The notes under the pieces: generated by a model
Told to the model about the DNA's origin: nothing
Seen by the model: only the letters and a program-made list of their open reading frames with translations
Databases searched by the model: none
IMG/VR virus record: IMGVR_UViG_3300015171_000003
Origin: a virus
Taxonomy: Duplodnaviria; Heunggongvirae; Uroviricota; Caudoviricetes
DNA: 18,845 nucleotides
Reading direction: 5' to 3' (one strand)
Shown here: positions 940 to 18,845 of the stretch, piece after piece
Numbering within the stretch: position 1 is the first letter of the stretch
Layout: each line of letters starts with the position of its first letter
Translations under genes and position numbers: made by a program

Positions 940-940
940 T

Positions 941-1570: not shown

Positions 1571-1575
1571 AATTA

Positions 1576-1604: not shown

Positions 1605-1605
1605 T

Positions 1606-2265: not shown

Positions 2266-2284
2266 TAATTAGTATTTTCAAGTT

Positions 2285-3494: not shown

Positions 3495-3498
3495 AATT

Positions 3499-4109: not shown

Positions 4110-4121
4110 ATATTTTTATTA

Positions 4122-4337
4122 TTAAAACGCACTCCCACTTTTTTCCAATAAAGTTGACAAAGATTCTATTTTTGATTTAAATTTATCATCTCTAAGGTAC
4201 AGATAGATTGATCTATTTATCAATTTTTGTAAGGTGAAGTTTGTAAATGCCGCGACATTTTTAAAAGATTCATATTCAGTTTCAATTACATTAATTGAAG
4301 TTTTTGTTATATTATTTTTATCAGTAAATGCGGTCAT
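4122..4337 (-). CDS. small protein, possibly ribbon-helix-helix DNA-binding
   Basis: TKTSINV strand followed by two predicted helices (FTLQKLINRSIYLYL); fold assignment is an inference. Confidence 0.55.
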   Translation of the reverse strand: MTAFTDKNNITKTSINVIETEYESFKNVAAFTNFTLQKLINRSIYLYLRDDKFKSKIESLSTLLEKSGSAF

Positions 4338-4408
4338 TGTCTTATTTGTAGAGATAAATAGAGATGAAATACTATAAAAACAAAAATAATTAAATATTTT
4401 TGAAAATA

Positions 4409-5413
4409 TTATTCATCTTCTTTAGAAGCTTTTCCGTCACAATGTTCAGTTCCTTTGAACGAACAATATTTACAATTCTTTTTAGCTTTGCCTGGAGTTT
4501 TTGGAAATTTGCCATTTTTATTATGATTTCCTTCTTTATCAAACCCAACATTAATAAATTCCATAAAACTCTTTACAGCATTATTCATTGCATATGTTGC
4601 TGATGGTGGTATTACAGATTGAATTCTGCTTTGTACATAATCTACATTTTCAAATAATTTTCTTTTAATAATGAAAAATTCTACAGAAACATCTTTTTCT
4701 GGCACTTTCATTAATTTTGAAAAAATCTTTTTATAAAGAAGAAGTTGATTTAATTTGACATTGTCTTGTTTTTGATATTTATTCCACCCATTTGTGGAAG
4801 TTTTGATATCATATATCAAGTATTTTTTAGTTATCTTATCCTGTAAAATCAAATCGACAAATCCTTTATATTTTAAATTTGGTCTAACATTAAATACCAA
4901 AGGGAATTCAATACCAATAATTTCATATTTCTTACTTGGAAAATATTTTGTCCTAATATCTGATCTAACAAAATGTTTTAGAATTTCGTTTCCATCTTCC
5001 ATAAATCCAGAAATATCTTCTTCATTAGAAATATATTCCACATCACTACTTATATCAAATACATGTAATTCTTTTTCAAGTTCCTCGACAGTTTTTCCCA
5101 AAGATTCCGCATAATCTTTTTTCTTTTGACCATCGGGTTTTTTTAAACATTTTCTAAACTCTTCTTCAAAAACAGGAAATAATTTAAGATCATCTGCTTC
5201 TAGCGCGGATTTTGAATATAAAGTATCTAAATACAATTGCAAAGCTTTATGAATTGCAGTACCAAATGCAGTATTGATACTATTTTCATATTTCTTTAAT
5301 TTATCAATATATCCTAACTTCCAAGATCTAGGACATTTTGACCAATCACTATATTGACTATAAGATACTGTTTTTTCTTTTTTCTGTGGAATAACATCTA
5401 CTTCATTAACCAT
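4409..5413 (-). CDS. PD-(D/E)XK exonuclease, Cas4/AddB-like with four-Cys Fe-S staple
   Basis: N-terminal SYSQ..W.KCP, GTAIH, E..GFVD...YDIKT catalytic motif, C-terminal CKYC...HC. Confidence 0.88.
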   Translation of the reverse strand: MVNEVDVIPQKKEKTVSYSQYSDWSKCPRSWKLGYIDKLKKYENSINTAFGTAIHKALQLYLDTLYSKSALEADDLKLFPVFEEEFRKCLKKPDGQKKKDYAESLGKTVEELEKELHVFDISSDVEYISNEEDISGFMEDGNEILKHFVRSDIRTKYFPSKKYEIIGIEFPLVFNVRPNLKYKGFVDLILQDKITKKYLIYDIKTSTNGWNKYQKQDNVKLNQLLLYKKIFSKLMKVPEKDVSVEFFIIKRKLFENVDYVQSRIQSVIPPSATYAMNNAVKSFMEFINVGFDKEGNHNKNGKFPKTPGKAKKNCKYCSFKGTEHCDGKASKEDE

Positions 5414-5419
5414 ATTAAA

Positions 5420-5473
5420 TTACTTTTCTCTTATGTCCACAATACATTTTGTAGGAATATTTTGATAAGTGTA
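5420..5473 (-). pseudogene. 3' half of a small ORF interrupted by IS607 (YTYQNIPTKCIVDIREK*)
   Basis: In frame with 7459-7352 once the element is removed at the shared AGG/TA junction. Confidence 0.4.
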
Positions 5474-5491
5474 CCTTCATAGTTACTAATT

Positions 5492-6730
5492 CTATTGTCT
5501 TTCATTACAAAAGTCAATATTATTAGTTTTTTGAGTACAAGGAACTATAGATTCCTTATCTAAAACTTTCCAATAGAAACCTGTCCTATTGTTCTGCTTT
5601 AACCGTTCTTGTTCTCCGATCAGAGACAAGTTAAAAGATAGATTAACTGAAGCATTATAATCCGAATCACATTCATAAGAACATGTTCCACATCTAAACT
5701 TCTTCTTCGTTCTATTACTTTTCCGTACCCATCCACATTTGTTACATCTTTGACTTGTGTAAGTCGGATTTAAACGGTTTACTTGGACACCAAGTAAATT
5801 ACATCTGTCCTCCAACTTGTCTAGGATTTGTGGATAATTCCAATGAGAAAGTTTTCGGCTTGTCCGAAATCCTTTTCTCAAATTTTTTATGTTTTCTATA
5901 TTAATTTGTTTAACATTATTCAAATTTAATTGATTTATACTCCAATTAACAAAATTCTTTCTATGAGTTTGTGATTTTCTAAAATTAACAGAACCACGTT
6001 TCTTTTCGGATATTTTATTTATGATTTTATCTAAAGAATATCCATGATTATCTTCTTTAGATTTAATTCCATTAGAACAATAAAATAAATCTGTCTTTCC
6101 AATATCAATCCCGACAACATTTCCAGTTTCTACTTTTTTTGGTTCTTCTAAATCAAATATGAATGTTATCTCATTTTTAGATAATCTTATTCCTTTCTTA
6201 AGTTTCCCATTTTTTAATATCTTATTAAAATGTTTTGTCTTTTTTATCGGAATTCCTATCTTTAATTTATTTCCAAGTGATGTTAATGTCAACCAGATAT
6301 CAAATGAAGTTTTATTATCAGAATCAATTTTTACAAATCTTTCATCCAGTTCACATTCTAAATTTTCTATATTTGGTTTGTTTTGATTTATATTATTATA
6401 AATTTTCTGTAACTTTCTCGCTTTCTTAAATTTTCCTTGTTCTTTAAATTTATTTATTATAAACAATCTTCTTTGTTGTTTGACTTTTGTTCCTCGAACA
6501 ATCCCACTTGTTTGTTTTCCTAAACATTGGATTGTTCTTGCGGATAACCACGTTTCTACATCAGATGTTAATTCTTTTGGTAACAATGTCGGAACTTTTT
6601 CTAAATCCAATAATTTATCAATAAAAATCTTAGAAACTCTTTTATATTCTTCTATAAAAAAGTCGATTTTATCTAATTTGTTTTTATTAGAAAATTTTAA
6701 AGTGGATTTAGAAGACCGGATCATGATCAA
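5492..6730 (-). CDS. tnpB: TnpB RNA-guided endonuclease (IS607-associated)
   Basis: RuvC-I GIDIG, RuvC-II IENI, PTYTSQRCNKC...CGTC zinc finger, RuvC-III DSDYNAS; catalytic D/E/D all present. Confidence 0.93.
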   Translation of the reverse strand: MIMIRSSKSTLKFSNKNKLDKIDFFIEEYKRVSKIFIDKLLDLEKVPTLLPKELTSDVETWLSARTIQCLGKQTSGIVRGTKVKQQRRLFIINKFKEQGKFKKARKLQKIYNNINQNKPNIENLECELDERFVKIDSDNKTSFDIWLTLTSLGNKLKIGIPIKKTKHFNKILKNGKLKKGIRLSKNEITFIFDLEEPKKVETGNVVGIDIGKTDLFYCSNGIKSKEDNHGYSLDKIINKISEKKRGSVNFRKSQTHRKNFVNWSINQLNLNNVKQINIENIKNLRKGFRTSRKLSHWNYPQILDKLEDRCNLLGVQVNRLNPTYTSQRCNKCGWVRKSNRTKKKFRCGTCSYECDSDYNASVNLSFNLSLIGEQERLKQNNRTGFYWKVLDKESIVPCTQKTNNIDFCNERQ

Positions 6731-7286
6731 GTTCTTTAATTAATTGTTCTGTTTTTCTCTTAGATCTTCTTTGTCCATAAATTCTAGCACAAAATGAAGT
6801 TATTACATTTACAAAATCTTGGATTAAATCTTCTTTTTCATTTAAAATTTGATTGACATAAATTACTTCACAATTTATATGTTTACATAAAGTATCTATG
6901 TATGAAGAACCAAATCTGCTTAATCTATCTCTATGTTCCACTACGAGTTTTGTGACTTTTCCTTCAGATAAAATTTTTAATAATTTTTTCCGTTTATCAT
7001 TTAAACCACTACCAATTTCTTTAATATTTTCATCTGTTTTCCATCCATTTGCATTACAATAACTAATTAATCTATTGGACTGGGATTCTAAATTAATTTT
7101 ATTTTCTGAAGAAGAAACTCTCGCATAAGTTATCACATAATCTTGTTTTATAATAAGATTTTCTTCTGGCACGATGATTGTGCCAGAAGGTAATTTATAT
7201 GCTAGAGGAAGTTCTCCTCTATTAAACATTAACCATGCAGTTCTGTATAATATTCCTTGTTTTTTTGCCCAATGACTTAACTTCAT
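6708..7286 (-). CDS. tnpA: IS607 TnpA serine recombinase (likely start MKLSHWAK at 7286)
   Basis: N-terminal MerR-like HTH, YARVSS catalytic Ser motif, EIGSGLN, VVEHRDRLSRFG, DFVNVITSFCARIYG. Confidence 0.95.
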   Translation of the reverse strand: MKLSHWAKKQGILYRTAWLMFNRGELPLAYKLPSGTIIVPEENLIIKQDYVITYARVSSSENKINLESQSNRLISYCNANGWKTDENIKEIGSGLNDKRKKLLKILSEGKVTKLVVEHRDRLSRFGSSYIDTLCKHINCEVIYVNQILNEKEDLIQDFVNVITSFCARIYGQRRSKRKTEQLIKELDHDPVF

Positions 7287-7313
7287 ACATGATAAGTATG
7301 AAATGGAAATATA

Positions 7314-7343
7314 AAACAATAAAAAATAATAAAAAACAATAAA
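7314..7343 (-). repeat. three tandem 10-bp direct repeats at the IS607 left end (TTTATTGTTT/TTTATTATTT/TTTATTGTTT)
   Basis: Read directly; consistent with TnpA-binding repeats known at IS607 ends. Confidence 0.75.
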
Positions 7344-7351
7344 TTTGATTA

Positions 7352-7459
7352 CCTATGATAATACAATGGATTATTCTCAAATGACTCAACCAAATTGGTT
7401 AATAAAATTCCTGATATAGGAGATTATATTTCTTTTACTATTTTAGATAAACTTTTCAC
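7352..7459 (-). pseudogene. 5' half of the small ORF interrupted by IS607; contains one in-frame TAA
   Basis: GTG at 7459: VKSLSKIVKEI*SPISGILLTNLVESFENNPLYYHR, ending at the AGG junction. Confidence 0.35.
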
Positions 7460-7461
7460 AA

Positions 7462-8283
7462 TTAAAATTTATATAATTCCCATGGTTTAGCAAATCCTTT
7501 AAATCCATCTTTTTCTGGTGTAAATGCTTCAAAATTATCTCCATAATGATACAAATACATTTCATTCTTAATTTTATCAGGCAAGAATTTCAATTCATCA
7601 TATGTTGCATGAACAGTTCCTGGAGAAAATAATTGACAATCATGAAAAATACATTTGTAATTTTCTATTGGAAAATCTTTAAAAATATTTGTATCAAATC
7701 TAGTATCTCCACTAAACATAACAGTATCATCAATAATTAACCCCGTTGTCCAAAATGCTTTACCCCATTCTTCTACACCACCAGGAACATGAATAGTTCT
7801 AAATATTTCCAATTTAATATCATCAACAATAACTTCATACTTTTCTCTTGGTTGTGCTGCCATCCATGTTGGATTAATAAAATCTACAAAATCAGAAAAT
7901 TTCAATCTACCATCTTCATTAATTTCACAACCACCCTTTAATGTTTTTTCCCATAAAATGTCAGCAAATGGAAATGTAATAATAAATCTAGACTTTCTTT
8001 TAGAAACATATCTGGACATTAATAAAAGCTCTTCCAAACCACCAGCATGATCGGCATGAGCATGAGTTACATGATAATAATCAAAATCAGTGATCTTAAT
8101 ACCCTGTCTATACAACGATTGTGGAATAGTAGTACCTACATCAACCAATATAGTTTTTCCTCCCTTAGCAATGATTATAGACGATTGATCATTCTTCTTC
8201 GCAAATGCACTTCCCACCCCAACAAATGTAATTACCAATTGTTTCTCAGAAGCTTTCTTTATTTTATTTAATATTTCACTCAT
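7462..8283 (-). CDS. apyc1: MBL-fold phosphodiesterase, Apyc1 (anti-Pycsar)-like
   Basis: GSAFAKK, THAHADHAGGLEE, LWEKTLKGG, SGDTRFD, FHDCQ, VHATYDEL and HYGDN occur in the order I recall for Apyc1 proteins. Confidence 0.8.
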   Translation of the reverse strand: MSEILNKIKKASEKQLVITFVGVGSAFAKKNDQSSIIIAKGGKTILVDVGTTIPQSLYRQGIKITDFDYYHVTHAHADHAGGLEELLLMSRYVSKRKSRFIITFPFADILWEKTLKGGCEINEDGRLKFSDFVDFINPTWMAAQPREKYEVIVDDIKLEIFRTIHVPGGVEEWGKAFWTTGLIIDDTVMFSGDTRFDTNIFKDFPIENYKCIFHDCQLFSPGTVHATYDELKFLPDKIKNEMYLYHYGDNFEAFTPEKDGFKGFAKPWELYKF

Positions 8284-8286
8284 AAT

Positions 8287-8634
8287 TTAATTTGGGAGAA
8301 TCAAACTAGACTTTTCTTTTAAAGTAATAAATGAATCATTTGGTGCTAGTTTCAAATTCTTTGAATACACGTCAATATCTTTATTAATATTGTAAATTTG
8401 TTCCATAGAAGGAACTTCTGGAAAATGTATTCTTCCTCCAGATGAATCTAAGGCCCAACCACCACCATGTTTTGGATCAACATGAAACCACCCAGAACAA
8501 TATGCATAAAATATATTTTCTATTGTTGCATTTGGTGATGCCATTTGTAATGCCAATAACATTTTTTGTATAACTTCTGGTTGTTTCTCTAAAATTTTAG
8601 ATATTTGATCGATTGTTTCTTCGTATGATTTCAT
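8287..8634 (-). CDS. hypothetical protein
   Basis: 115-aa ORF in a tightly packed operon. Confidence 0.75.
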   Translation of the reverse strand: MKSYEETIDQISKILEKQPEVIQKMLLALQMASPNATIENIFYAYCSGWFHVDPKHGGGWALDSSGGRIHFPEVPSMEQIYNINKDIDVYSKNLKLAPNDSFITLKEKSSLILPN

Positions 8635-9116
8635 AATTTTATTTTTAGAAAATTGTTTACTTTATTATAATTTTCAACTTGTTCATTTGTTAAATTTTTA
8701 AATTCTGGATAGTAATAAAATAATTCTTCTTGTGTTTTTATATAATCTCCAGAATGATGTATATGATATCTAATAATAGAAATCTGTGGTGTATAAACTC
8801 CATTAGGATATATTGGCATATTAATTGAGTGATAATAGAAATCAATATTAGTCGGGTTTACAAATGCATAAAATTCATCTTCAATAAAAATTGTCTTTTT
8901 TAATTCTAATAAGAATTTTCTAATTCCTTCACAAGAATCTAAATTATAGTTTCTCACAAAATCACTTTTACAAATAAATTGATCCACTCCATCTTTTTTA
9001 ATAATTGGTGTTGAAGTATAACTTATACTTTTAAACCTATTTTCCAAAGATATTTCCGAAATAACTTTTAAAAAGTTCTCGTGTATTGTTTTTTCTAATG
9101 TTTCTTTTTCACTCAT
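8631..9116 (-). CDS. hypothetical protein
   Basis: 161-aa ORF, ATGA overlap with next gene. Confidence 0.75.
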   Translation of the reverse strand: MSEKETLEKTIHENFLKVISEISLENRFKSISYTSTPIIKKDGVDQFICKSDFVRNYNLDSCEGIRKFLLELKKTIFIEDEFYAFVNPTNIDFYYHSINMPIYPNGVYTPQISIIRYHIHHSGDYIKTQEELFYYYPEFKNLTNEQVENYNKVNNFLKIKL

Positions 9117-9120
9117 AATG

Positions 9121-9720
9121 TCATATTTTATTCAAAACTTGTTGTACATGCCCAATTAATTCTTGATTTTCAAGTAAGTTTTCTTTATTTTTTTGTTCTT
9201 TCCAGATAATTTTAAAATCCGCAATATTATACAATATTGGATTATTTAACTTTTCGTGATCATTTGCTGGTTTTAGAATTTCCCCATCTAACAATTCTTT
9301 GGTTAAATGTACTAAAACACCATTTAATTCATCCCTAATCCATTGTGCTTCATCTTTGTCATAAATTGAGTATCTGACATCGGTAATTAAAATATAATCC
9401 ACAGAACCACGAATAGCCTCAATTTCTTTATTTAAAATATCAATCCAATATCTTCCATTAGTTCTTTTTCTTTGAATATCTCCAGAAATTACTAAAAGTG
9501 GTCTAAAAATTTCTTTAATATTTCTATCTTCTGTCCAAACATTAAATCCAAATTTTTCTTTTATGAATTGTTCACAATCCTTTTTTAATGCTCTTGCCAA
9601 TGACAAAATTTTTATAGTTTTTCCAATTTTATTACATTCATTCTCAAAGATAGAAGCAAATGTATCTTTTCCACATGATGCCACTCCAGATATTCCAATA
9701 ATCTTAGTTAATTTCTTCAT
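9121..9720 (-). CDS. deoxynucleoside monophosphate kinase (T4 gp1-like)
   Basis: IIGISGVASCGKDT P-loop, LARALK, RPLL, ILITDVRY. Confidence 0.85.
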   Translation of the reverse strand: MKKLTKIIGISGVASCGKDTFASIFENECNKIGKTIKILSLARALKKDCEQFIKEKFGFNVWTEDRNIKEIFRPLLVISGDIQRKRTNGRYWIDILNKEIEAIRGSVDYILITDVRYSIYDKDEAQWIRDELNGVLVHLTKELLDGEILKPANDHEKLNNPILYNIADFKIIWKEQKNKENLLENQELIGHVQQVLNKI

Positions 9721-9732
9721 ATTATCTATATT

Positions 9733-9927
9733 TTATGAACTCATTTGATTAATTATTTCCTCTGAACTTAAAGATTTAATTATAATTTTTCTATCCTCTT
9801 CTGAAACGTTTGTATATTGAAAAACCGCCGTCAATAATAACCGAACTTTATCTAATTCAAAAGAATCCAATTCTGTAATTTCAATAGAATGTTTCTCATT
9901 CTTACTTACCTTTAATTTTATTTTCAT
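9733..9927 (-). CDS. hypothetical protein
   Basis: 64-aa ORF overlapping upstream stop. Confidence 0.65.
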   Translation of the reverse strand: MKIKLKVSKNEKHSIEITELDSFELDKVRLLLTAVFQYTNVSEEDRKIIIKSLSSEEIINQMSS

Positions 9928-10403
9928 AATTTCAATTTTTTGATTAATTTTGGATCTGCGCCATACAACTTACAAATATTATATATAGACTCAATACCTT
10001 CTTTTGATTTTCTTAATAATTCAATGTATTCTCCTGCTTCTCTAAGAGAAATCTCATAATATTTTACAAAAAGATCTAGAACCCATTTTTCAACTTTATT
10101 TTCATCTTTACTTTCTTTAATATATTTGTTATACAATTTTCTTTTGGGAATTAAAGAAATTAATAATTTATAATAATTTTCTGGAGATAATATATTAGAA
10201 TATTTTTGTAAATAATTAATAGTTTCTATGTAAGATTCTTCCATTGATAAAAATCTATTTATCATATAAGAACTCCAAGTTTTTTTATCTCCATCTGTAA
10301 TATTCTGAAAATAATCTACTCGTTGTCCATAACATACTTCATTTAAATGATCAAACAAAGTCTTAGATTTATCTAATGGATCTTTAATCCTTTTCTTCAT
10401 CAC
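9924..10403 (-). CDS. DNA polymerase clamp-loader small subunit (T4 gp62-like)
   Basis: LFDHLN...YMINRFLSM...YYKLLISLIPKRK..KYIK pattern typical of gp62 homologues. Confidence 0.75.
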   Translation of the reverse strand: MMKKRIKDPLDKSKTLFDHLNEVCYGQRVDYFQNITDGDKKTWSSYMINRFLSMEESYIETINYLQKYSNILSPENYYKLLISLIPKRKLYNKYIKESKDENKVEKWVLDLFVKYYEISLREAGEYIELLRKSKEGIESIYNICKLYGADPKLIKKLKL

Positions 10404-10690
10404 TTCTTATAAGCTTTTTGTAAACGTAATACCTCAGATTTAAACATTGGATTAGCATCGGCACATCTAGATATGTTTTCCCAAATCTCCGAAGCTGATA
10501 AAGGACCTGATATAAATTTATCATCGGCAATTTCTTTTTCTAAAGGACCAAATAAAATAACTTCGAACAAATTTTCAGAAATCTTTTTGGAATAAAACCC
10601 AATTATTTCTCCATTTTCATTTTTTACAAAATTCCCAATAGTAATTGGTAATGTGCTCTCTACTTTATATGACTGTACAAGTTTCTTCAT
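10400..10690 (-). CDS. hypothetical protein
   Basis: 96-aa ORF with its own promoter. Confidence 0.75.
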   Translation of the reverse strand: MKKLVQSYKVESTLPITIGNFVKNENGEIIGFYSKKISENLFEVILFGPLEKEIADDKFISGPLSASEIWENISRCADANPMFKSEVLRLQKAYKK

Positions 10691-10696
10691 TTATTA

Positions 10697-10725
10697 ATGA
10701 TATTATGTTTTGCAATTAATAACAA
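10697..10725 (-). promoter_or_regulatory. sigma70-like promoter TTGTTA-17-TATCAT
   Basis: -10 ends 6 nt before ATG 10690. Confidence 0.45.
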
Positions 10726-10731
10726 TTTATT

Positions 10732-11049
10732 TTAACTATAGGTTTTCTTTAACCTATTACACAATTTTACATAAACATCACCATGACACCTTTTTGGATT
10801 ACAAAAACAAACCAAAGTTTTTCCATTTAAAGATGCAACTGCATGTAAAAATTCTCTATCAGATTTCATTCGTGTAATACAATATTCCTCAAATCTATTG
10901 ATATTTTTCTCTCTATCTTCTTCACATTTTAATCGTTCTGGATTTCCAAAATATCCACTTAATCCTTTTCCAGATCTTCCAATATAAACATATTGAGTAT
11001 TACTTTTCCAATCTCTAGGAGCATTTTTAATGTGAATTACATTTGTCAT
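10732..11049 (-). CDS. DUF4326 family protein
   Basis: YVYIGR, FGNP, L.GKTLVCFC.PK.CHGDV motifs. Confidence 0.88.
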   Translation of the reverse strand: MTNVIHIKNAPRDWKSNTQYVYIGRSGKGLSGYFGNPERLKCEEDREKNINRFEEYCITRMKSDREFLHAVASLNGKTLVCFCNPKRCHGDVYVKLCNRLKKTYS

Positions 11050-11071
11050 ATTTTGTAATAGTTATAATTAA

Positions 11072-12724
11072 TCATAAATGAACTGCATCTCGCCACCACT
11101 TTGGAAAAAATTTCTTCCATTTATTATAAAACCATAAGAAATTTTCACAAAGTATATAAGTGACAGCAGTATCTTTATCATTTCTGATACTTCTTCCAGT
11201 AGATTGAATTAATGTTAAAACTGTTTCGTGCGCATACCATTCTGGATTTAATTCAGCACGCTTTTTAATTGCTATTGTTTCTAAATTAGGAAATGGCATT
11301 TTCAACACGACTTGGAAACGAGAAAGATCGTCCTTAAGGTCTACGCCCTCATTTAGAGATGGAGACAGCAAAACTGTATTATCGCTCGTCTTATGCGATT
11401 CTAGGATAGCTGCTTTTGATTTTGAATCGACATGTGAAAGAATGCGATCATCTTTAACTTGTTTTAGAACACAATCCATCTGTTTATATGAAGTGACAAA
11501 AATAATTCCCTTTTCATTTTTATGTTCATCCAAAATAACTTTAACAGTCTTTGAAAATGGTTTCATTGACTCCTGCAAATCATCATGCTTAATTTTTCCA
11601 CACGGATGATACAAAATAGGTCTATTCTCTTTTGGAAATGGAAGATCCTTACTAATAAAACAAGTCTCTTTGGGATTCAATCCATATTCTTCAATAATAT
11701 AATCTTTATCAAGAATAGTTCCAGACATGATAATATTCTTCTTGTTTTTCTGAAATAAAAGTTTATTCATGTATTTTTTTGGACTTAATGGAGTGACACA
11801 AATCTTATCATTAGACCATTCAGCAATCCATTCTAAATCATTCCATTCTTTAACGTATCCCATGAATTTCTCAATAGTTTTCTTTAAAGTATCAATCTTC
11901 CTTGAGATTTTCATATACTCTGGAATATTATCGGGATTGATATCTTCGTCACCATTCTCAAATGATTTCAAACATTCTTCTAATTGCATTAATTCTTTTC
12001 GTAAAGCTACACCATAAACTGTTTTAATCCATTCAGTTAATTCTGATATTTTATAACTCTTGTCTTTTCTATAAGGAGGGACTTTTAAATTAAAACTTTC
12101 TATCGTTCTCTTTGATAATTGAAATGTAATAAAATCTTTTACAAAGTCTGCTAGTTTATGCCCTTCATCAAAAATCATTAAACCTCTTTCTGGTGGTCGA
12201 TTCTTAAAACCATATTCTGTTTGATATAAATAATATGATAAATTTGTCACTCCGCATGGTGCAAGCAAAAATTTATTTCTGGCAATATCATATAAACAAT
12301 CATTACAAGATTTTTTCATTCTGCCATGAAGTTCTTTTGATTCTTTACAATTTAAAACTGTTCTATTCTTTTTATGACATATAAAATTTTGAGCAGATTG
12401 AATTGTTACCAGTCCTTTGTCCTCATAAGAATCCATGTACTGTTGTTGTAACTGCAATGTGGTCGTTGTAATATATGTTTGATATGGTTCTCTATTAAAT
12501 CCTTGTTTAGAATTTGCATAGAGTGTTCTACCTAAAGTATATGCGATTGCCGATTTTCCGCTTCCTACTGGTGCATTTATTAAAAAGTTTTTATATTTAT
12601 TATAATTTTCAGAAATAAAATCTAAAATGTCTGATTGCATTGGACGATATTGTTCTTCAACAAAATAATCTCGCCAATTTGATAAATTTACTTTTGTTGA
12701 CATAGGTGATAAAACAGAATCCAT
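11072..12724 (-). CDS. DinG/XPD-like SF2 helicase with four-Cys (Fe-S) region
   Basis: APVGSGKS, IFDEGH, MSGT, EGVDLKDDLSRFQVVLKMPFP, QSTGRSIR; Cys cluster FICH..NC..SCNDC. Confidence 0.9.
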   Translation of the reverse strand: MDSVLSPMSTKVNLSNWRDYFVEEQYRPMQSDILDFISENYNKYKNFLINAPVGSGKSAIAYTLGRTLYANSKQGFNREPYQTYITTTTLQLQQQYMDSYEDKGLVTIQSAQNFICHKKNRTVLNCKESKELHGRMKKSCNDCLYDIARNKFLLAPCGVTNLSYYLYQTEYGFKNRPPERGLMIFDEGHKLADFVKDFITFQLSKRTIESFNLKVPPYRKDKSYKISELTEWIKTVYGVALRKELMQLEECLKSFENGDEDINPDNIPEYMKISRKIDTLKKTIEKFMGYVKEWNDLEWIAEWSNDKICVTPLSPKKYMNKLLFQKNKKNIIMSGTILDKDYIIEEYGLNPKETCFISKDLPFPKENRPILYHPCGKIKHDDLQESMKPFSKTVKVILDEHKNEKGIIFVTSYKQMDCVLKQVKDDRILSHVDSKSKAAILESHKTSDNTVLLSPSLNEGVDLKDDLSRFQVVLKMPFPNLETIAIKKRAELNPEWYAHETVLTLIQSTGRSIRNDKDTAVTYILCENFLWFYNKWKKFFPKWWRDAVHL

Positions 12725-12736
12725 AATTTGGAATAA

Positions 12737-12765
12737 ATTATATTATAAAAATACTAAACTGTCAA
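12737..12765 (-). promoter_or_regulatory. perfect consensus promoter TTGACA-17-TATAAT
   Basis: -35 at 12765-12760, -10 at 12742-12737, ATG 12 nt downstream. Confidence 0.85.
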
Positions 12766-12767
12766 TT

Positions 12768-12800
12768 TCAATTAATACAAAGTTTTAAAACCTTAGCTAT
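12768..12800 (+). repeat. 33-bp imperfect direct repeat, copy 1 (core AATACAAAGTTTTAAAACCTTA)
   Basis: Matches 13514-13546 at 30/33 positions, 22-bp exact core with palindrome GTTTTAAAAC. Confidence 0.9.
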
Positions 12801-12854
12801 CTCTGTTCTAGGAACTTCTTGCATATAATATGCCACATTAAATTTTATTTTCAT
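12768..12854 (-). CDS. putative 28-aa peptide MKIKFNVAYYMQEVPRTEIAKVLKLCIN
   Basis: Manual translation; start context TAATAAAT-ATG like other genes; too short to be sure. Confidence 0.3.
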   Translation of the reverse strand: MKIKFNVAYYMQEVPRTEIAKVLKLCIN

Positions 12855-12885
12855 ATTTATTAATAATTCTACCAAATTTATATAT

Positions 12886-13512
12886 ATGTTAAATTTATTT
12901 TATTCAGTATTATCACAAGCCAGAGTTAATACTACCCCCCCCCCAATATTAGTATATTTTAATCCGAGTGAAACATATTCTACTATAACACTTTCTAATA
13001 CAAATCAAACAGCAGGTCCTACTTCAGGAGCTAATTTGTCAACTTATTTAATTAATGGAAATACAACTGGAAAATTTTATGTTGAATTTATTGTTAATAC
13101 AGTTGATGCTACTAACTATCCATTTATAGGGGCGAGTAATATATTTAATGATGCCTCCTATCCAGGAGGAATGGGAGCAACTTCTTTTAGTACTCAATGT
13201 AGTGATGGTGGTGTTCCACATGCTCAAGGAGTCACTGTAACAGGAGTAAAAGCTGGTCAAATACTCGGTGGTAATAGAATTGGATATGCTATAGATATAG
13301 GTAATGGAAAATTTTGGATGAGTGTGAATGGTTCTTGGGCTAATAGCCAAAATCCAAGTAATGGAACAATTCCAATGGTGACTTGGACACCTTCCGGGAC
13401 ATTTTATCCATGTATTGGTATGCAGTCATCAGCCGTAATAACTGTATATGGAAATTCATCATTATGGACTTATACTAGACCAACAGGTTTTTTAGGTTTT
13501 GACGGAAGTTAA
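12886..13512 (+). CDS. SPRY/B30.2 (ConA-like beta-sandwich) domain protein, possible virion accessory or adhesin
   Basis: TGKFYVEF, IGYAIDIGNGKFWMSVNGSW, GTFYPCIG motifs; G/T/S/N-rich; the only convincing plus-strand gene. Confidence 0.78.
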   Translation: MLNLFYSVLSQARVNTTPPPILVYFNPSETYSTITLSNTNQTAGPTSGANLSTYLINGNTTGKFYVEFIVNTVDATNYPFIGASNIFNDASYPGGMGATSFSTQCSDGGVPHAQGVTVTGVKAGQILGGNRIGYAIDIGNGKFWMSVNGSWANSQNPSNGTIPMVTWTPSGTFYPCIGMQSSAVITVYGNSSLWTYTRPTGFLGFDGS

Positions 13513-13513
13513 C

Positions 13514-13546
13514 TTAATCAATACAAAGTTTTAAAACCTTAACTAT
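13514..13546 (+). repeat. 33-bp imperfect direct repeat, copy 2
   Basis: See copy 1; overlaps the stop codon of 13539-13943. Confidence 0.9.
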
Positions 13547-13943
13547 TCCATGCTTTCAAATAATCTTCGAGATGCATTCCAATTTCTAGATCATCTTCTG
13601 TTTCAAGATTTATTATTTTAAAATTAATCCAAGAATTATTAAAATTATCAACCAAATCTACTTCCAATAAAATATCATCGTTACTCCACAAAATCCCAAC
13701 TACATGTATATTATATTGATTATTTTCATTTAATAATTTTCTTGACGAAATCAAATCAGATATCAATTCTCGAAATTTGCAATAATCTAAAGTAATTATA
13801 ATAAGATTTTCTTCTTTTTTTGAAAAGTCTTCTGGCCTTAAACTTTCTATACTAATAGATAATTCCAATTCATCACCTTTAATTCTAAAAGAAAGAATAT
13901 AATCTTCTTGTCCACCAGCACTTATCTTTATTAATTTATTCAT
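13539..13943 (-). CDS. hypothetical protein
   Basis: 134-aa ORF overlapping upstream gene. Confidence 0.7.
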   Translation of the reverse strand: MNKLIKISAGGQEDYILSFRIKGDELELSISIESLRPEDFSKKEENLIIITLDYCKFRELISDLISSRKLLNENNQYNIHVVGILWSNDDILLEVDLVDNFNNSWINFKIINLETEDDLEIGMHLEDYLKAWNS

Positions 13944-14187
13944 ATGAAGTTTTTTGTTTTTTGCCTTTTAAAACTTGTTCAGCACCTTTGATAAATAAAT
14001 CATCGGCGGGTATCTTTTCAAATTCCTTTACTAAACAATTAAAACTTAAATCACAATTGAAATATACTAATTCCCCATTTCCATTAGTACATTCAAATGC
14101 CAATCTGTTATCTTTCATCATTACTAATTTGTGACTACTATATATTTTATTTAAAATGAAAATAGCTCGTTGCATTTTACTTTTCAT
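13936..14187 (-). CDS. hypothetical protein
   Basis: 83-aa ORF in coupled array. Confidence 0.7.
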   Translation of the reverse strand: MKSKMQRAIFILNKIYSSHKLVMMKDNRLAFECTNGNGELVYFNCDLSFNCLVKEFEKIPADDLFIKGAEQVLKGKKQKTSYE

Positions 14188-14359
14188 AATTTATAGTTCC
14201 ATCTTTATTTAATATGAATGATATGTTAATCTCTTCTAGTGGATAATATATTAGCATATTTATATCAATTTTGTTTTTATCTGTATCAAAATTTCCAGAA
14301 TAAATAGTTATCATTCCATTTTCATCTATTGTTTTACTTTCGGGGATATATGTAATCAT
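14177..14359 (-). CDS. hypothetical protein
   Basis: 60-aa ORF in coupled array. Confidence 0.6.
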   Translation of the reverse strand: MITYIPESKTIDENGMITIYSGNFDTDKNKIDINMLIYYPLEEINISFILNKDGTINYEK

Positions 14360-14469
14360 AATTTCTTTTTATATTTTTTAAACCCCAAATATTCCAACAA
14401 CTGACGCAAATAACAAATCGGCGGAGTATCATCATCTAAAGATTTTTTGCAATATGGACATTTACTCAT
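14356..14469 (-). CDS. 37-aa CxxC peptide MSKCPYCKKSLDDDTPPICYLRQLLEYLGFKKYKKKL
   Basis: Below ORF-track cutoff; ATGA overlaps with both neighbours fill the gap exactly. Confidence 0.7.
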   Translation of the reverse strand: MSKCPYCKKSLDDDTPPICYLRQLLEYLGFKKYKKKL

Positions 14470-14675
14470 TCTGTAATAGTATCTAATTGTTTCCTAATAT
14501 ATCTCATAAAAATCATTCCTTTATCTTCTGGAAGGAATGTTCCTTCGCCAGTATCAGAAATTGGTACTGGAAATTGAAAATTTTTGTCAACAACTTCATA
14601 CCACAATTCATTTTTCCTATAAAATAGAAATTTAACTTTGGTTCCCGACACTAAATCTTTAATATTTGTTTTCAT
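14466..14675 (-). CDS. hypothetical phage protein
   Basis: 69-aa ORF, FPVPISDTG...FMRYIRK. Confidence 0.75.
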   Translation of the reverse strand: MKTNIKDLVSGTKVKFLFYRKNELWYEVVDKNFQFPVPISDTGEGTFLPEDKGMIFMRYIRKQLDTITE

Positions 14676-14686
14676 TTATATAATTT

Positions 14687-14857
14687 CTATTTTTCCAATA
14701 CAGGATTTTCTAGTGGAGATACTTCTGTTTCAATGTCCCACTTACTATACATTTTGTTTAGCATATCTTTAATATCGTTAATTGCTTCATCTTCAGTTTC
14801 TGGTTCACAATAAGGAAAATGTATTGTTATTTTTAAATTTACTGGATATGTTTTCAT
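14687..14857 (-). CDS. 56-aa hypothetical protein MKTYPVNLKITIHFPYCEPETEDEA...
   Basis: Manual translation; starts 1 nt after upstream stop and fills the gap. Confidence 0.7.
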   Translation of the reverse strand: MKTYPVNLKITIHFPYCEPETEDEAINDIKDMLNKMYSKWDIETEVSPLENPVLEK

Positions 14858-14858
14858 T

Positions 14859-15083
14859 TTATTCTTTACTTAATTCATTTTCTGTTTGATCGCTACCCAA
14901 ATTATCACATTCATCATGTGCATAATGGCCATCACAAAGAGAACATTTGGAAGACCATGGGGATTTATCTTTTGATTTTTTATTTTTCGTCTTTCTAAAA
15001 ATAGAATCAAAATTTTTCTTATAATTTCCCGAAAAACAATTTCTTGGGGAATCTCCTTTGCCATTTTGATTTGGTTTACTCAT
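14859..15083 (-). CDS. small basic protein with GKGDSPR motif and C-terminal Cys/His cluster
   Basis: ORF with own promoter; CSLCDGHYAHDEC possible metal site. Confidence 0.7.
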   Translation of the reverse strand: MSKPNQNGKGDSPRNCFSGNYKKNFDSIFRKTKNKKSKDKSPWSSKCSLCDGHYAHDECDNLGSDQTENELSKE

Positions 15084-15092
15084 ATATACAAT

Positions 15093-15121
15093 ATTATGTG
15101 ATATTTTTATATAATTGTAAA
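15093..15121 (-). promoter_or_regulatory. sigma70-like promoter TTTACA-17-CATAAT
   Basis: -10 ends 9 nt before ATG 15083. Confidence 0.6.
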
Positions 15122-15122
15122 C

Positions 15123-15743
15123 TTATTTTTTTCTAAATACTAAAAAATAAGAGTGATATATTCTAGCATGTTTTTGTTTTTTATTTTTGCCAATTGGAAT
15201 TCTATGTTTTGCACCTAATATGAATAAATCTTCAGTATCAAATCCAATTTCTCCTGCCAAATTTAAAACCAACTGATGAGTACAATGCATAGAATGATTG
15301 TGAATAATATCTTGACATTTAACAACAAATATTCCATCTTTTTTTAAAACTCTATATGCGTCTGCAATTGTTCTTGAATAATGCACAATCAATTCATCAT
15401 ATTTCCAATAACCTCCAAATCTGGAACTCATTATTGACTTTTTAGTTGTTCCATGTTCTCTTCCATTTTTTACATAAGTTAAAAAAGGAGGATCAAACAT
15501 TATAGAAGAAAACTTATTATCTATTACATCAAGATTTCCACTATCACATTTAATAACATCAGAAAATAATGGATCAATATCAAATTTGTATTTTGGTTGA
15601 TTTCTATTCTTATAAAATGAACCATTCCCATATGTTACATCACATTCAAATCCATCAGGAAGATATAATTTCTCAATGGCATCTAATATTTCATCATTTG
15701 AAAAATACAAACTTTTAATTACTATATCATTTTTCATCTTCAT
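15123..15743 (-). CDS. orphan amino (N6-A/N4-C) DNA methyltransferase
   Basis: CDVTYGNGSF SAM-binding motif I, FDPPF motif IV, RVLKKDGIFVVKC. Confidence 0.82.
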   Translation of the reverse strand: MKMKNDIVIKSLYFSNDEILDAIEKLYLPDGFECDVTYGNGSFYKNRNQPKYKFDIDPLFSDVIKCDSGNLDVIDNKFSSIMFDPPFLTYVKNGREHGTTKKSIMSSRFGGYWKYDELIVHYSRTIADAYRVLKKDGIFVVKCQDIIHNHSMHCTHQLVLNLAGEIGFDTEDLFILGAKHRIPIGKNKKQKHARIYHSYFLVFRKK

Positions 15744-16260
15744 TTTTTACAATTATTATTTTATTGTTTTCATAATTTATATTATACAAATTTTTGTCCA
15801 AAAACTTATTAAAATCTATTTTGAATAGTCTGAATCTTGCTTTGTCTATGAATGGAAAATTTAATTTTTCGTTGGGTAGCTTTTCAAAAAAATATGGAAT
15901 AATTTCATTCAGTATAATATAAAAGTGAGTATTGTATATTTTAGAATCATAATCCATTTTATAATAAACATTAGGTCTATTATAATTTGGTCTCCCATTT
16001 TCATCTTCAAACCATAACTTTACATCAAATTCATCTCCATTTTTTAATAAACGAATGTTGTGAATTTTTTCATGAATATCATAAAATTTAAACCAACATT
16101 TACCAACAGATGTGTATGAATAATGATCTTGAGGGTTTACTAATTCAGAAATTATTATATGATTCTCATAAGCAATAGATTCTTCTAAATCCAATTGTTT
16201 ATATTCATTTTCTTCTAATAATTCTTTCAATAAGTTTTTTATACTACCCCACTTGTTCAT
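15727..16260 (-). CDS. hypothetical protein
   Basis: 177-aa ORF overlapping both neighbours. Confidence 0.7.
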   Translation of the reverse strand: MNKWGSIKNLLKELLEENEYKQLDLEESIAYENHIIISELVNPQDHYSYTSVGKCWFKFYDIHEKIHNIRLLKNGDEFDVKLWFEDENGRPNYNRPNVYYKMDYDSKIYNTHFYIILNEIIPYFFEKLPNEKLNFPFIDKARFRLFKIDFNKFLDKNLYNINYENNKIIIVKNEDEK

Positions 16261-17026
16261 AAAATTTTTTTATTATATTTGTAAATTCATTTGGCAATAA
16301 ATTAAAACAATAATCCCTTATATTATTATCAATTGTATCTATTCCATAATATGCTTCACAAATTCCACCTGCCATTGCACAAATAGTATCAGTGTCTCCA
16401 CCAATATAAATACATTTTTTCATACAATCTACAAAAGAATTTGATATATAAAAACAATATAGTGCCTCTGAAACAGTTCCTTCACAAGTAGCATTTCCAA
16501 TATAATTTTTATGCAAATCTTCTAAATTCTTATCTTTAATGGAAAATCCATATTTTTCTTCTAAATAACTAATTATTATATCTTTATTTTTATCTATTTT
16601 TGCTTTAAAAATAGCCTCTGCAATACAAAGACCTCCTCTAATTCCTTCTAGAGTATTATGGGTGGACTTGCAAGATTTTTCCGCTTCTTTTATCATATCA
16701 GAATATTCTTTATAATAAAATGGAATTGGGGATATTCTCATAGCAGACCCATTTCCAAAACTAGGAATAATTGGCATATCATTAATAAGCCACATTTTAA
16801 ATCTAGAACTAAATCCAGAATTAATATATTTTCTTCCCCATTTCTTAAAACTATCAATATATTGATTATTATTTAATAAACAATCCATCACGGCAATTGT
16901 AAGAACAGTGTCATCTGTAAATCTACAATCCTTGTGTATCAATTCATTACTATTAATATTTTGTTTATTTAATTTTGGACCTTCAAATCTAGATCCTATT
17001 ATGTCACCAATTATACTGCCAATCAT
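16244..17026 (-). CDS. ADP-ribosylglycohydrolase (DraG/ARH family); ATG start at 17026
   Basis: GDIIGSRFE, FTDDTVLT, GNGSAMRISP, THN, GGDTDTICAMAGG motifs. Confidence 0.93.
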   Translation of the reverse strand: MIGSIIGDIIGSRFEGPKLNKQNINSNELIHKDCRFTDDTVLTIAVMDCLLNNNQYIDSFKKWGRKYINSGFSSRFKMWLINDMPIIPSFGNGSAMRISPIPFYYKEYSDMIKEAEKSCKSTHNTLEGIRGGLCIAEAIFKAKIDKNKDIIISYLEEKYGFSIKDKNLEDLHKNYIGNATCEGTVSEALYCFYISNSFVDCMKKCIYIGGDTDTICAMAGGICEAYYGIDTIDNNIRDYCFNLLPNEFTNIIKKFYEQVG

Positions 17027-17032
17027 CAAACA

Positions 17033-17061
17033 ATTATATGATATTGATGGTTACATGTCAA
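17033..17061 (-). promoter_or_regulatory. perfect consensus promoter TTGACA-17-TATAAT
   Basis: -35 at 17061-17056, -10 at 17038-17033, ATG 6 nt downstream. Confidence 0.88.
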
Positions 17062-17099
17062 AATAAAATAACCCAACTTAATTTAAAAATTGGGTTATT
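17058..17099 (-). terminator. intrinsic terminator after HNH gene
   Basis: 10-bp inverted repeat AATAACCCAA/TTGGGTTATT (17099-17090 with 17076-17067) followed by TTATTTT. Confidence 0.65.
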
Positions 17100-17123
17100 C
17101 TACCTTGTAGTTCTGGTGGTGAT

Positions 17124-17759
17124 TTACTTAGCAACAATAAAGTGCTTATGATCTTCATTCCTAATATCCTTAATAATCGCAGAAATAGGCATAGGCACAG
17201 GCTCCTTTGGAATCTTAATCAACTTATAACCAATTTCTTCATTTAACATATGTCCTTTCTTGGAATTCAAGTCCTTGTGACAAAGTACCATATTTGACCA
17301 AGTATTTTGACCGCCCCTTGCTTTTGGAATTACATGATCAATATTAGCAGTACTCTTTGTGAGAAGTTGACCACTGTACTGACAAATAAATTTATCTCGT
17401 TGAGCAATACTCATTTTTGTTGGTCTTGCTTTCTTGACTGGCATCTTTTTGAAATGTACATTAACAATAACAGTAGGGACCCGACATGCTTGCTTTACAC
17501 TAGAAATAGACAAATCCCAAGGTCTAATTGGCAATTTAATCCAATCTTCCCACTTTACAGGATTCATATAAATAATATTGTCAGTTAATGGATTTCCATT
17601 TTCATCCTTCTCATATTCAATGTCAAGAGCATGTGCTGGTGGACATTCATCAGTTCCTCCAGTCATTGCAACAATTGCATCCTTGACACTCAACATTCTA
17701 ATTGGTAGCCAATTTCCATTCAAACTTAATACCACAATCTTATTTACAATCGTACTCAT
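17124..17759 (-). CDS. HNH endonuclease with N-terminal VLSLN..W domain
   Basis: RDKFICQYSG, NIDHVIPKARGG, N.VLC...NSKKG. Confidence 0.9.
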   Translation of the reverse strand: MSTIVNKIVVLSLNGNWLPIRMLSVKDAIVAMTGGTDECPPAHALDIEYEKDENGNPLTDNIIYMNPVKWEDWIKLPIRPWDLSISSVKQACRVPTVIVNVHFKKMPVKKARPTKMSIAQRDKFICQYSGQLLTKSTANIDHVIPKARGGQNTWSNMVLCHKDLNSKKGHMLNEEIGYKLIKIPKEPVPMPISAIIKDIRNEDHKHFIVAK

Positions 17760-17785
17760 ATATTTAATTATTTACTATTTATAAA

Positions 17786-17814
17786 AATATACAACTATTC
17801 TTATAAAAAGTCAA
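17786..17814 (-). promoter_or_regulatory. sigma70-like promoter TTGACT-17-TATATT
   Basis: -35 at 17814-17809, -10 at 17791-17786 upstream of the HNH gene. Confidence 0.6.
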
Positions 17815-17849
17815 TTGTTATTTCGGCATTATTCTTTTATTATAAAATT

Positions 17850-17926
17850 TGGAGCCTAATATCAAAAATCGAATTGATATTTTTGCTTTTACCGAAGCAA
17901 TGTTCTTCCACTTGAACTAATTAGGC
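17850..17926 (-). tRNA. atypical or degenerate tRNA-Thr(GGT)-like, 8-nt anticodon loop and 8-nt T-loop
   Basis: Acceptor GCCTAAT/ATTAGGC, D-arm GTTC/GAAC, TTGCT-TCGGTAAA-AGCAA, ATCAA-TTCGATTT-TTGAT, encoded CCA. Confidence 0.7.
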
Positions 17927-18020
17927 ATATAGACCATTTACTTTGGTCAAAACGGTTAGACTTATATGAAATGCCAGTGGCAGAGCATATCCTGCGTGTA
18001 CTTTGCTGTTCTAACTTGGA

Positions 18021-18269
18021 TTATTCAAAATCATCTAAATGTATCTTAAAAAAATCAACAATCTCTTCCCAAGTTTTAGCACTTTCATTTACTTTTGATC
18101 TATCATCATCATTATCACTCCTATCAAACACTTCTAAAAAATAAGTCCCGTCTTCATTTAAAGAAATGATCTCGCTAATTTCTGAATCACTATAATAATA
18201 AAAATTATCTTCTGGATAATAATTAAAATCACAATATTCTAATATCTCGCGTTGTTTTTCTGTGAACAT
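18021..18269 (-). CDS. acidic hypothetical protein within tRNA cluster
   Basis: 82-aa ORF starting 2 nt after the tRNA-Ser CCA. Confidence 0.7.
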   Translation of the reverse strand: MFTEKQREILEYCDFNYYPEDNFYYYSDSEISEIISLNEDGTYFLEVFDRSDNDDDRSKVNESAKTWEEIVDFFKIHLDDFE

Positions 18270-18271
18270 AA

Positions 18272-18361
18272 TGGCGGAAGTAGTCAGAGTTCAACTGACG
18301 GACCCTTGCGGATCGGCACATTAGCAGTATGCTGTAGAAAAGCGACATCTACGTTACTTCC
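18272..18361 (-). tRNA. tRNA-Ser(GCT), class II, non-canonical D/T loops
   Basis: GGAAGTA/TACTTCC acceptor, G73, CCA, anticodon loop CT-GCT-AA, variable arm with GCAA loop, T-arm GTCAG-TTGAACT-CTGAC. Confidence 0.85.
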
Positions 18362-18439
18362 AATAATCTATAACTATTGTTTGAAATTTTCTTAATAGAT
18401 CAAATCATACGTCATCTATTTAATTTATTTCAAACAAAT

Positions 18440-18525
18440 TGGTAGGAGAAGTGGGATTTAAACCCACGATATCTTGCGATAGATGCTTATGAAACATCTT
18501 GCTTAAATCACTTGCATATTCTCCC
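18440..18525 (-). tRNA. class II tRNA with CAT anticodon (Met/Ile2 anticodon on a Leu-like body)
   Basis: GGGAGAA/TTCTCCT acceptor, A73, CCA, loop TT-CAT-AA, variable arm TATC-GCAA-GATA, T-arm GTGGG-TTTAAAT-CCCAC. Confidence 0.85.
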
Positions 18526-18598
18526 ATAACTTTTCAAAGTATTCTCACAAAAATCGGGTATTTTTTTGGCAAAGCTCCTAAAAATGCAGAAACTGCTT

Positions 18599-18835
18599 CC
18601 GTTCTAATAAACCTACAAAAATCTAAATTCATACTTTTAAATAATAAATTGTTGACTCTTTGTTATCTTCTTGTTTCTTCGGTATCACTTTTTTCTGAAT
18701 TGCTCCAGACCAAGAGGCGATGTCTCCACAAGCGTTAATTCCCGTAGAACTTACGGTATTTTGTCTTAAAAATTCTTCTCCACACTTCTTTAAATTTTTA
18801 GTATCAAAACTATCATTTTTCTTAAAAAATGTCAA
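18599..18835 (-). mobile_element. remnant 3' end and right end of a second IS607/TnpB element (probable omegaRNA region)
   Basis: Translates to a TnpB-like C-terminus (NLKK...NTVSSTGINACGD...KQE) with degenerate RuvC-III and an upstream in-frame TAA; ends ...TTTATTAGAACGG as I recall for IS607 right ends. Confidence 0.6.
18807..18835 (-). promoter_or_regulatory. promoter TTGACA-17-TAGTTT with TGn extension
   Basis: -35 at 18835-18830, TGA then -10 at 18812-18807. Confidence 0.5.
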
Positions 18836-18845
18836 AATATTTTAA

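Follow-up and report, generated by a model that had tools for sequence, protein, structure and literature searches.

A class II tRNA with anticodon CAU in a large phage, a putative elongator tRNA-Met on a Tyr-type body

The tRNA cluster at the end of the contig

The window, by which we mean the whole stretch of 18,845 nucleotides analysed here (IMG/VR record IMGVR_UViG_3300015171_000003), forms the final 18.8 kb of a contig of 82,845 bp and has a G+C content of 24-33%, with an overall value of 27% cited for the phage. Its genes lie nearly all on the minus strand and have functions typical of a large phage, including a DinG/Rad3-type helicase, an exonuclease, a clamp-loader subunit, glycosyltransferases, Sir2, an ADP-ribosylglycohydrolase, an HNH endonuclease and a TnpB-type transposase that is adjoined by a resolvase-family gene. 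The host is likely to be of the Bacteroidota type, which fits the finding that no Shine-Dalgarno motif is present upstream of any of the 22 minus-strand gene starts between 1570 and 18269. The sole genome match to the TnpB of the window, with 42% identity, is located on a phage-like contig (L081; G003 contig 620, 9.8 kb) that is binned with a Bacteroidales MAG and carries 11 irregular tRNAs, including a 90-nt Thr(UGU). Whole-window megablast against phage records gave no match. The helicase has closer relatives, at 62% identity, on a 217-kb contig, and distant ones, at 34% identity, in a 281-kb phage whose ordinary array has a normal Leu(CAA) and CAU tRNAs of class I; the array of the 281-kb phage is uninformative for the CAU tRNA of the window.

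The sole default ARAGORN call in the window is an 86-nt tRNA gene with anticodon CAU, from here on tRNA(CAU), whose features are listed in Table 1. The Rfam model RF00005 matches it with 47.7 bits (E 1.8e-9, model positions 1-71, in a 271-nt region searched), above the gathering score of 29 bits, and its predicted fold of -24.3 kcal/mol (z = -3.64) was beaten by only 1 of 200 shuffles. An Rfam search of the whole window (1-18845) at gathering thresholds returned zero tRNAs, as the speed filters of the default run lose such odd phage tRNAs. The gene that lies next in the cluster, a Ser(GCU)-like tRNA, was missed by both ARAGORN and Rfam, although a perfect class II cloverleaf is its minimum-energy fold (z = -3.24); standard pipelines can therefore miss or mislabel genes of this kind. 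This Ser(GCU)-like gene has a G at the expected C56 of its T-loop, and its variable arm too has a GCAA loop.

Table 1. Features of the tRNA cluster, with coordinates in the window
Feature	Position	Strand	Details
Class II tRNA gene, anticodon CAU	18440..18525	-	CCA encoded at 18440-18442, A73 at 18443; ARAGORN, Rfam, fold
Anticodon CAU (positions 35-37 of the 86-nt gene)	18489..18491	-	Within loop UUCAUAA, with U32 and A38
Variable arm, 14 nt	18468..18481	-	3-4 bp stem, GCAA loop, 3' tail to C48; stem covaries in look-alike family
D-arm, 3-bp stem and 11-nt loop, Tyr/Ser-type layout	18500..18516	-	G15; A19 replaces G19
T-arm, U56 pairing with A19	18451..18467	-	Sequence parse
tRNA-Ser(GCU)-like gene, class II, 90 nt	18272..18361	-	G73, CCA, A8-C9; 79 nt downstream of tRNA(CAU), same cluster
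Thr(GGU)-like tRNA gene, 8-nt anticodon loop	17850..17926	-	ARAGORN at lowered threshold, 4-base anticodon GGUA; folded
HNH endonuclease gene beside the tRNA cluster	17124..17759	-	PHROG HNH families, best E 2.3e-17

The cluster runs from tRNA(CAU) through the Ser(GCU)-like gene, an 82-aa ORF and the Thr(GGU)-like gene to the gene for the HNH endonuclease. Since the contig ends 320 nt upstream of tRNA(CAU), the array may continue beyond it. ARAGORN detected no Ile(UAU) gene in the window. In relatives, a normal Thr(GGU) adjoins the long-armed CAU tRNA.

The gene for tRNA(CAU) is intact. Its acceptor stem has 7 bp, of which the first is a G1.U72 wobble, and its T-stem 5 bp. Direct parsing of the sequence gives U8, A9 and A26; the D-stem consists of three pairs (10-12 with 23-25), with A13 and A22 unpaired, and the five pairs of the anticodon stem end in U31.G39. 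The universal tertiary positions are kept (U8, A14, G15-C48, G18, A21, U33, U54, U55, A58 and G53-C61), and the sole deviant pair of the elbow, in which A19 with U56 replaces G19-C56, is compensated; by eye, phage tRNAs that share the T-loop of tRNA(CAU) also have G-A at the expected G18-G19. With a variable region of more than 10 nt that forms its own stem-loop and a 3-bp D-stem, tRNA(CAU) belongs to class II. The original prediction, made from the letters alone, had named the CAU anticodon, the long variable arm, the 3-bp D-stem, A73 and G1-U72, all of which are present at the stated coordinates, and had noted that Met and Ile2 tRNAs are class I. CAU on a class II body breaches the bacterial rule by which only the tRNAs for Leu, Ser, Tyr and Sec have long arms.

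Architecture of the body and its likely synthetases

Class II tRNAs of Bacteroidota genomes were tabulated by architecture (Table 2). At all seven features compared (A9, G15, the place of G18, a 17-nt D-arm, C48, A73 and an arm of 12-15 nt) tRNA(CAU) has the modal value of the Tyr set, with four misses for Leu and three for Ser; the D-arm is 17 nt long in tRNA(CAU) and in all three sets.

Table 2. Class II tRNAs of Bacteroidota genomes compared with tRNA(CAU)
Feature	Leu (n=14)	Ser (n=11)	Tyr (n=26)	tRNA(CAU)
Position 9	G	G	A in 22/26	A
Position 15	A	G	G	G
G18 at D-arm index	8	7 in 10/11	7	7
Position 48	U	C	C	C
Position 73	A	G	A	A
Variable arm	11-17 nt	16-20 nt	12-15 nt	14 nt

With bacterial tRNA-Leu, tRNA(CAU) shares A73, a similar arm length and the 3-bp D-stem, but it differs in G15-C48, A9, an earlier G18 and an anticodon other than NAA or NAG. 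Of 33 phage tRNA-Leu, 31 have A15 with U48 and 32 have G9. The body had initially been described as Leu-like, which does not hold, since G15-C48 and A9 stand in place of the A15-U48 and G9 of Leu and G18 lies one position earlier. A Leu body or origin was rejected on G15-C48, A9 and the layout of the D-loop, set against all 14 Bacteroidota Leu tRNAs with A15, U48 and index 8.

The likeness to tRNA-Tyr(GUA) extends to U8-A9, the 3-bp D-stem with its 11-nt loop, G15-C48, A73 and an arm of 12-15 nt with a 3-bp stem and a 3-nt tail, whereas tRNA(CAU) differs from it in a CAU anticodon that is devoid of U35, in G1.U72 rather than G1-C72 and in the whole of the anticodon arm. The D side of tRNA(CAU) was compared with that of 428 tRNAs whose D-arm is 17 nt long, drawn from a collection of 1184 distinct tRNAs. 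The closest was a phage tRNA-Tyr(GUA) (L008 4020-4104), identical at 18 of 20 positions (8-26) and at 41 of 52 positions outside the anticodon and variable arms. Sequence profiles did not single out Tyr: a position-specific, structure-anchored matrix gave 17.4 bits for Ser, -10.7 for Tyr and -37.8 for Leu, and profile HMMs ranked Ser over Tyr over Leu with bacterial sets and placed Leu about level with Tyr with pooled sets. These rankings are inconsistent, since they depend on the sequence of the stems and on a Tyr set of narrow diversity, and were therefore not relied on. In architecture the body is accordingly of the Tyr/Ser type, and its A73, A9 and short arm are discriminators of the Tyr type. 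Tyr is indicated by two independent links, namely the nearest D-side tRNA and the tRNA-Tyr(GUA) genes returned by the D-arm search described below.

A class II body with A73 could in principle mark a deliberate mistranslator, in which Tyr, Leu or Ser would be charged on account of the body and AUG would be misread, and the LeuRS of E. coli does ignore the anticodon (PMC9976931). We consider this very improbable. The determinants of E. coli LeuRS are A73, the A15-U48 Levitt pair, G18G19 and A20a (PMC9976931), and tRNA(CAU) has U at 20a and lacks A15-U48, G19-C56 and the D-loop layout of Leu, so that LeuRS should reject it. Both charging with Leu and descent from a Leu(CAA) by one mutation, which had been among the options first put forward, are thus unlikely. 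Of the critical TyrRS determinants, A73 and U35 (PMC9976931), the second is missing in an anticodon that is CAU rather than GUA, with A at 35, and TyrRS should therefore reject the tRNA. SerRS should do likewise, given that position 73 is A instead of the G73 of Ser and that the arm is shorter than in all 11 Bacteroidota Ser tRNAs. Moreover, the full CAU anticodon is enough for MetRS: a tRNA-Val that carries CAU is as good a substrate of this enzyme as tRNA-Met, and tRNA-Ile2 in its unmodified form accepts Met (PMC9976931).

Codon use in the window also argues against mistranslation. In a small sample of two genes, those for the helicase and the ADP-ribosylglycohydrolase, each aligned to 119 homologues, Met was the commonest residue (0.21) in the columns aligned with 20 internal ATG codons, followed by Leu, Ala, Val and Ile at their usual levels, and Tyr was outside the top six. 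At 19 ATA codons the mean frequency of Ile was 0.37, compared with 0.40 for ATT, and TAT codons align with Tyr. There was thus no sign of recoding of ATG or ATA in these two genes, and in the phage ATG and ATA appear to behave as standard codons for Met and Ile, respectively.

Long-armed CAU tRNAs in other phages

A search for the same architecture in other phages, as the original prediction had proposed, recovered a family of 86-nt long-armed CAU tRNAs with the layout of the window. We used a pattern that combines a CAU loop with class II spacing, a T-loop and CCA; among the first 120 IMG/VR matches, which were examined, at least 35 long-armed CAU tRNA genes of 81-90 nt were confirmed by ARAGORN among the matches listed. 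Two patterns, run on IMG/VR and on metagenomes, gave at least 65 distinct long-armed CAU tRNAs in phage and metagenome contigs. These are heterogeneous, some having initiator-like acceptor stems and some forming an A8-C9 family, and one group shares U8-A9, the 17-nt D-arm, G15-C48, the 14-nt arm and the loop UUCAUAA with the tRNA of the window. Eleven sequences of 86 nt, including that of the window, align free of gaps. In this alignment 96.4% of cells are paired across the cloverleaf, the arm stem and two tertiary pairs (slid controls, 33-59%), and both-side changes occur in 14 of 25 pairs, a count reached by 0 of 500 shuffles. The variable-arm stem (helix 6) is 100% paired with both-side changes in two of its three pairs, and the 19-56 pair shows one both-side change. 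The compensatory covariation of the family is strong, and its structure is under selection.

Since ten of the eleven aligned sequences had been retrieved by a pattern that fixes the anticodon loop, the invariance of the loop in the alignment is by construction, and we therefore searched IMG/VR with the D-arm of the family alone, leaving the anticodon free. Of the 15 matches, nine are loci of long-armed CAU tRNAs, all with the identical anticodon arm, and two are genuine tRNA-Tyr(GUA) genes (L401 and L407) with the same D-arm and variable-arm design; four contained no tRNA and none had a Leu anticodon. The D-arm look-alikes thus carry CAU or GUA and never CAA or UAA, which, together with the architecture, makes a mutated Leu(CAA) unlikely; the outcome that the original prediction had named as fatal to its idea, orthologues that all have CAA or TAA anticodons, was not what the anticodon-free search returned. 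The best look-alikes share the layout of tRNA(CAU) at about 65-75% base identity. Exact pieces of 38 nt and 23 nt found no match in IMG/VR, blastn matched no more than 29 nt, in the T-arm, to any of 50,697 phage records, and the metagenome scan contained no near-identical copy. On these comparisons tRNA(CAU) is a member of a widespread phage class, and not a one-off mutation or a damaged tRNA-Leu.

The arrays of relatives bear on the decoding role of the family. The long-armed CAU gene is found repeatedly between Ile(UAU) and Thr(GGU), and of 26 distinct arrays with 10 or more tRNAs, 15 contain no other CAU tRNA and 10 contain Ile(UAU). A complete phage genome of 166.6 kb with terminal repeats carries the look-alike L188. 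Among its 16 tRNAs, the long-armed CAU tRNA is accompanied by Ile(GAU), Ile(UAU) and a CAU tRNA of class I that is initiator-like. With the Ile and initiator-like CAU tRNAs present, the elongator Met slot in this phage would be left to the long-armed CAU tRNA.

We also considered a non-decoding role, in which tRNA(CAU) would act as a decoy or sponge in the shape of a tRNA, such as one directed at a defence nuclease with specificity for the body or variable loop of tRNA-Tyr, or as another regulatory RNA. The Tyr-type body would suit such a role, as would the irregularity of the neighbouring tRNAs in the cluster. It is nevertheless improbable, because a decoy would not need the U33, CAU, A37, A73 and CCA that are all kept, nor an anticodon arm that stays the same throughout the family even in the D-arm search, which did not select for it; that the long-armed gene is so often the only CAU tRNA of a large array argues in the same direction.

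Decoding identity and the long arm

To sort the possible identities of a CAU anticodon, the CAU tRNAs of 61 Bacteroidota genomes were divided into three types, with the Ile2 and elongator types split by C4-G69/C5-G68, which we take to be the E. coli TilS rule. All 17 distinct Ile2-type tRNAs have G1-C72 and C32. The 24 distinct elongator-type tRNAs have G1.U72 in 15 cases and U32 in 20, and the one initiator seen, with three G-C pairs in the anticodon stem, has a C1/U72 mismatch and C32. The tRNA of the window, with G1.U72, U32, A4-U69, G5-C68 and U29-A41, and with G-C in one of the three pairs 29-31/39-41, is therefore elongator-like. At the foot of the anticodon stem, 17 of the 24 elongator-type Bacteroidota tRNA-Met (L233, L242-L271) have an A31/C39 mismatch. 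The G1.U72 pair itself is also found in the class I CAU tRNAs of the 281-kb relative (L049 1501-1578 and L050 1501-1578), in a phage Leu(CAA) (L033 6970-7052) and in one member of the long-armed CAU family (L294 2762-2847).

A serious rival is that tRNA(CAU) is a tRNA-Ile2, in which TilS of the host, or a phage TilS encoded outside the window, makes lysidine at C34 so that AUA is read as Ile. Like tRNA-Ile2(CAU) of the E. coli ileX/TilS type, it has CAU, A37, A38 and A73, and such a tRNA would suit an AT-rich and AUA-rich genome: ATA makes up 25 per 1000 codons in the window of this 27% G+C phage, and the window has no Ile(UAU) gene. The pairs and bases expected of Ile2 are, however, absent. 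Neither C4-G69 nor C5-G68 is present, U29-A41 replaces C29-G41, and U32 and G1.U72 stand against the C32 and G1-C72 of every Ile2-type tRNA in the Bacteroidota sample. The pair at 12-23 is C-G, whereas the IleRS determinant is U12 with position 23 (PMC9976931). No TilS was found among 10 ORFs of the window scanned against Pfam, PHROGs assigned functions other than TilS to 9 of 10 further window ORFs scanned, and the records of five relatives contain no TilS domain (PF01171). In relatives, moreover, a separate Ile(UAU) accompanies the long-armed CAU tRNA. We regard the Ile2 identity as rather unlikely for tRNA(CAU).

An initiator-type or dual-purpose tRNA-Met is a further possibility, in that a weak G1.U72 pair might allow partial formylation and so serve start codons as well as elongation. 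Dual-function initiator mutants have been reported, as have natural initiators with a U1:G72 wobble or U1:A72 (PMC6265465), and acceptor stems of the initiator-like kind are seen in many of the other long-armed CAU tRNAs of phages. Even so, tRNA(CAU) has neither a 1:72 mismatch nor the three G-C pairs at 29-31/39-41, only one of which is G-C, and in the Bacteroidota sample G1.U72 marks the elongator type, the one initiator seen having C1/U72. We hold this reading to be very doubtful.

On balance, tRNA(CAU) is probably an elongator tRNA-Met on a Tyr-type body that decodes internal AUG codons. An unusual Met or Ile tRNA was one of the options originally raised, and it is the Met form of it that we favour; we infer both the amino acid that would be charged and the reason for the long arm. 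Like Bacteroidota elongator tRNA-Met, tRNA(CAU) has CAU, A73, G2-C71, U32 with A38 and G1.U72, but the known tRNAs belong to class I and have a variable region of 5 nt and a D-stem of 4 bp, whereas tRNA(CAU) has a 14-nt paired arm, a 3-bp D-stem, a D-loop of the Tyr/Ser type and A19-U56. It would thus combine an anticodon arm and acceptor end of the Met type with a class II body of the Tyr/Ser type. The MetRS determinants CAU and A73 are both present, and MetRS of the host would charge the tRNA through them, so as to supply Met at internal AUG codons during infection. In the classic binding geometry of class Ia synthetases, the enzyme leaves the variable-arm face of the tRNA free, and since MetRS is of class Ia, the extra arm should be tolerated.

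Several routes could account for the retention of the long arm. [quoted passage not shown] We advance only tentatively, as possible but not likely, the view that the long-armed Tyr-type body is adaptive rather than the product of drift. According to this view, a Met anticodon arm and a Met-type acceptor end were grafted on a tRNA-Tyr scaffold, and the resulting tRNA escapes host defence nucleases, or the phage's own shut-off of host tRNAs, aimed at the class I body of tRNA-Met. If so, the family would be one of rule-breaking class II elongator tRNA-Met and would stand beside the long-armed Thr, Asn, Lys, Ile, Glu, Asp and Cys tRNAs of the same arrays.

A long extra arm has been regarded in bacteria as reserved for the tRNAs of Leu, Ser and Tyr (PMC9976931), and we found no description of a class II or long-armed tRNA with anticodon CAU in full-text literature searches. 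Closest to such a tRNA are allo-tRNAs and the polycistrons of phage tRNAs described as 'irregular' (Mukai et al. 2017, PMC5389517). Allo-tRNAs likewise have a long arm and anticodons outside the usual class II amino acids, and occur in phages and in tRNA polycistrons, but they have Ser identity and an 8/4 or 9/3 geometry of acceptor and T-stem (PMC5389517), in contrast to the 7/5 geometry, A73 and short arm of the tRNA described here. The latter is of interest as an intact long-armed tRNA with a methionine anticodon, whose structure is under selection in relatives and which is common in large phages. Should it be charged with Met, the variable-arm rule would be a cellular habit and not a constraint of the translation machinery, and phage tRNA arrays would be a reservoir of re-bodied tRNAs, with a bearing on phage-host conflicts over tRNA cleavage and as natural scaffolds for orthogonal tRNAs.

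Unusual tRNAs of other kinds were observed in the course of these searches. A conserved element with a tRNA-like end (UUCAUAA resembling an anticodon loop, T-arm and ACCA) is shared by contigs from metagenomes, of which two or more carry the label human gut (L280, L282, L287, L295, L296, L298, L300, L314, L317, L321, L325, L326, L328 and L335); the 5' part of this element does not form a cloverleaf and ARAGORN makes no call. The arm half of one long-armed CAU tRNA matches genes that are annotated as tRNA-Asn in phages of Salmonella and Escherichia and as tRNA-Lys in phages of Caulobacter, Ruegeria and Rhodobacter. Long-armed tRNAs for Thr(UGU), Asn(GUU), Glu, Asp, Cys, Lys, Trp, His and Ile(UAU) recur in phage arrays (L003 1539-1625, L020 6868-6950, L272 2449-4278, L081 2908-2997 and L129 7347-7440), sometimes adjoining a class I copy for the same amino acid, and long-armed tRNAs with anticodons other than CAU are also present in contigs of about 110 kb that are T5-like in appearance. 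The reverse case is seen in the array of L008, in which Leu tRNAs of 76-81 nt have short variable regions (1411-1491, 3066-3141, 8105-8184 and 8770-8846).
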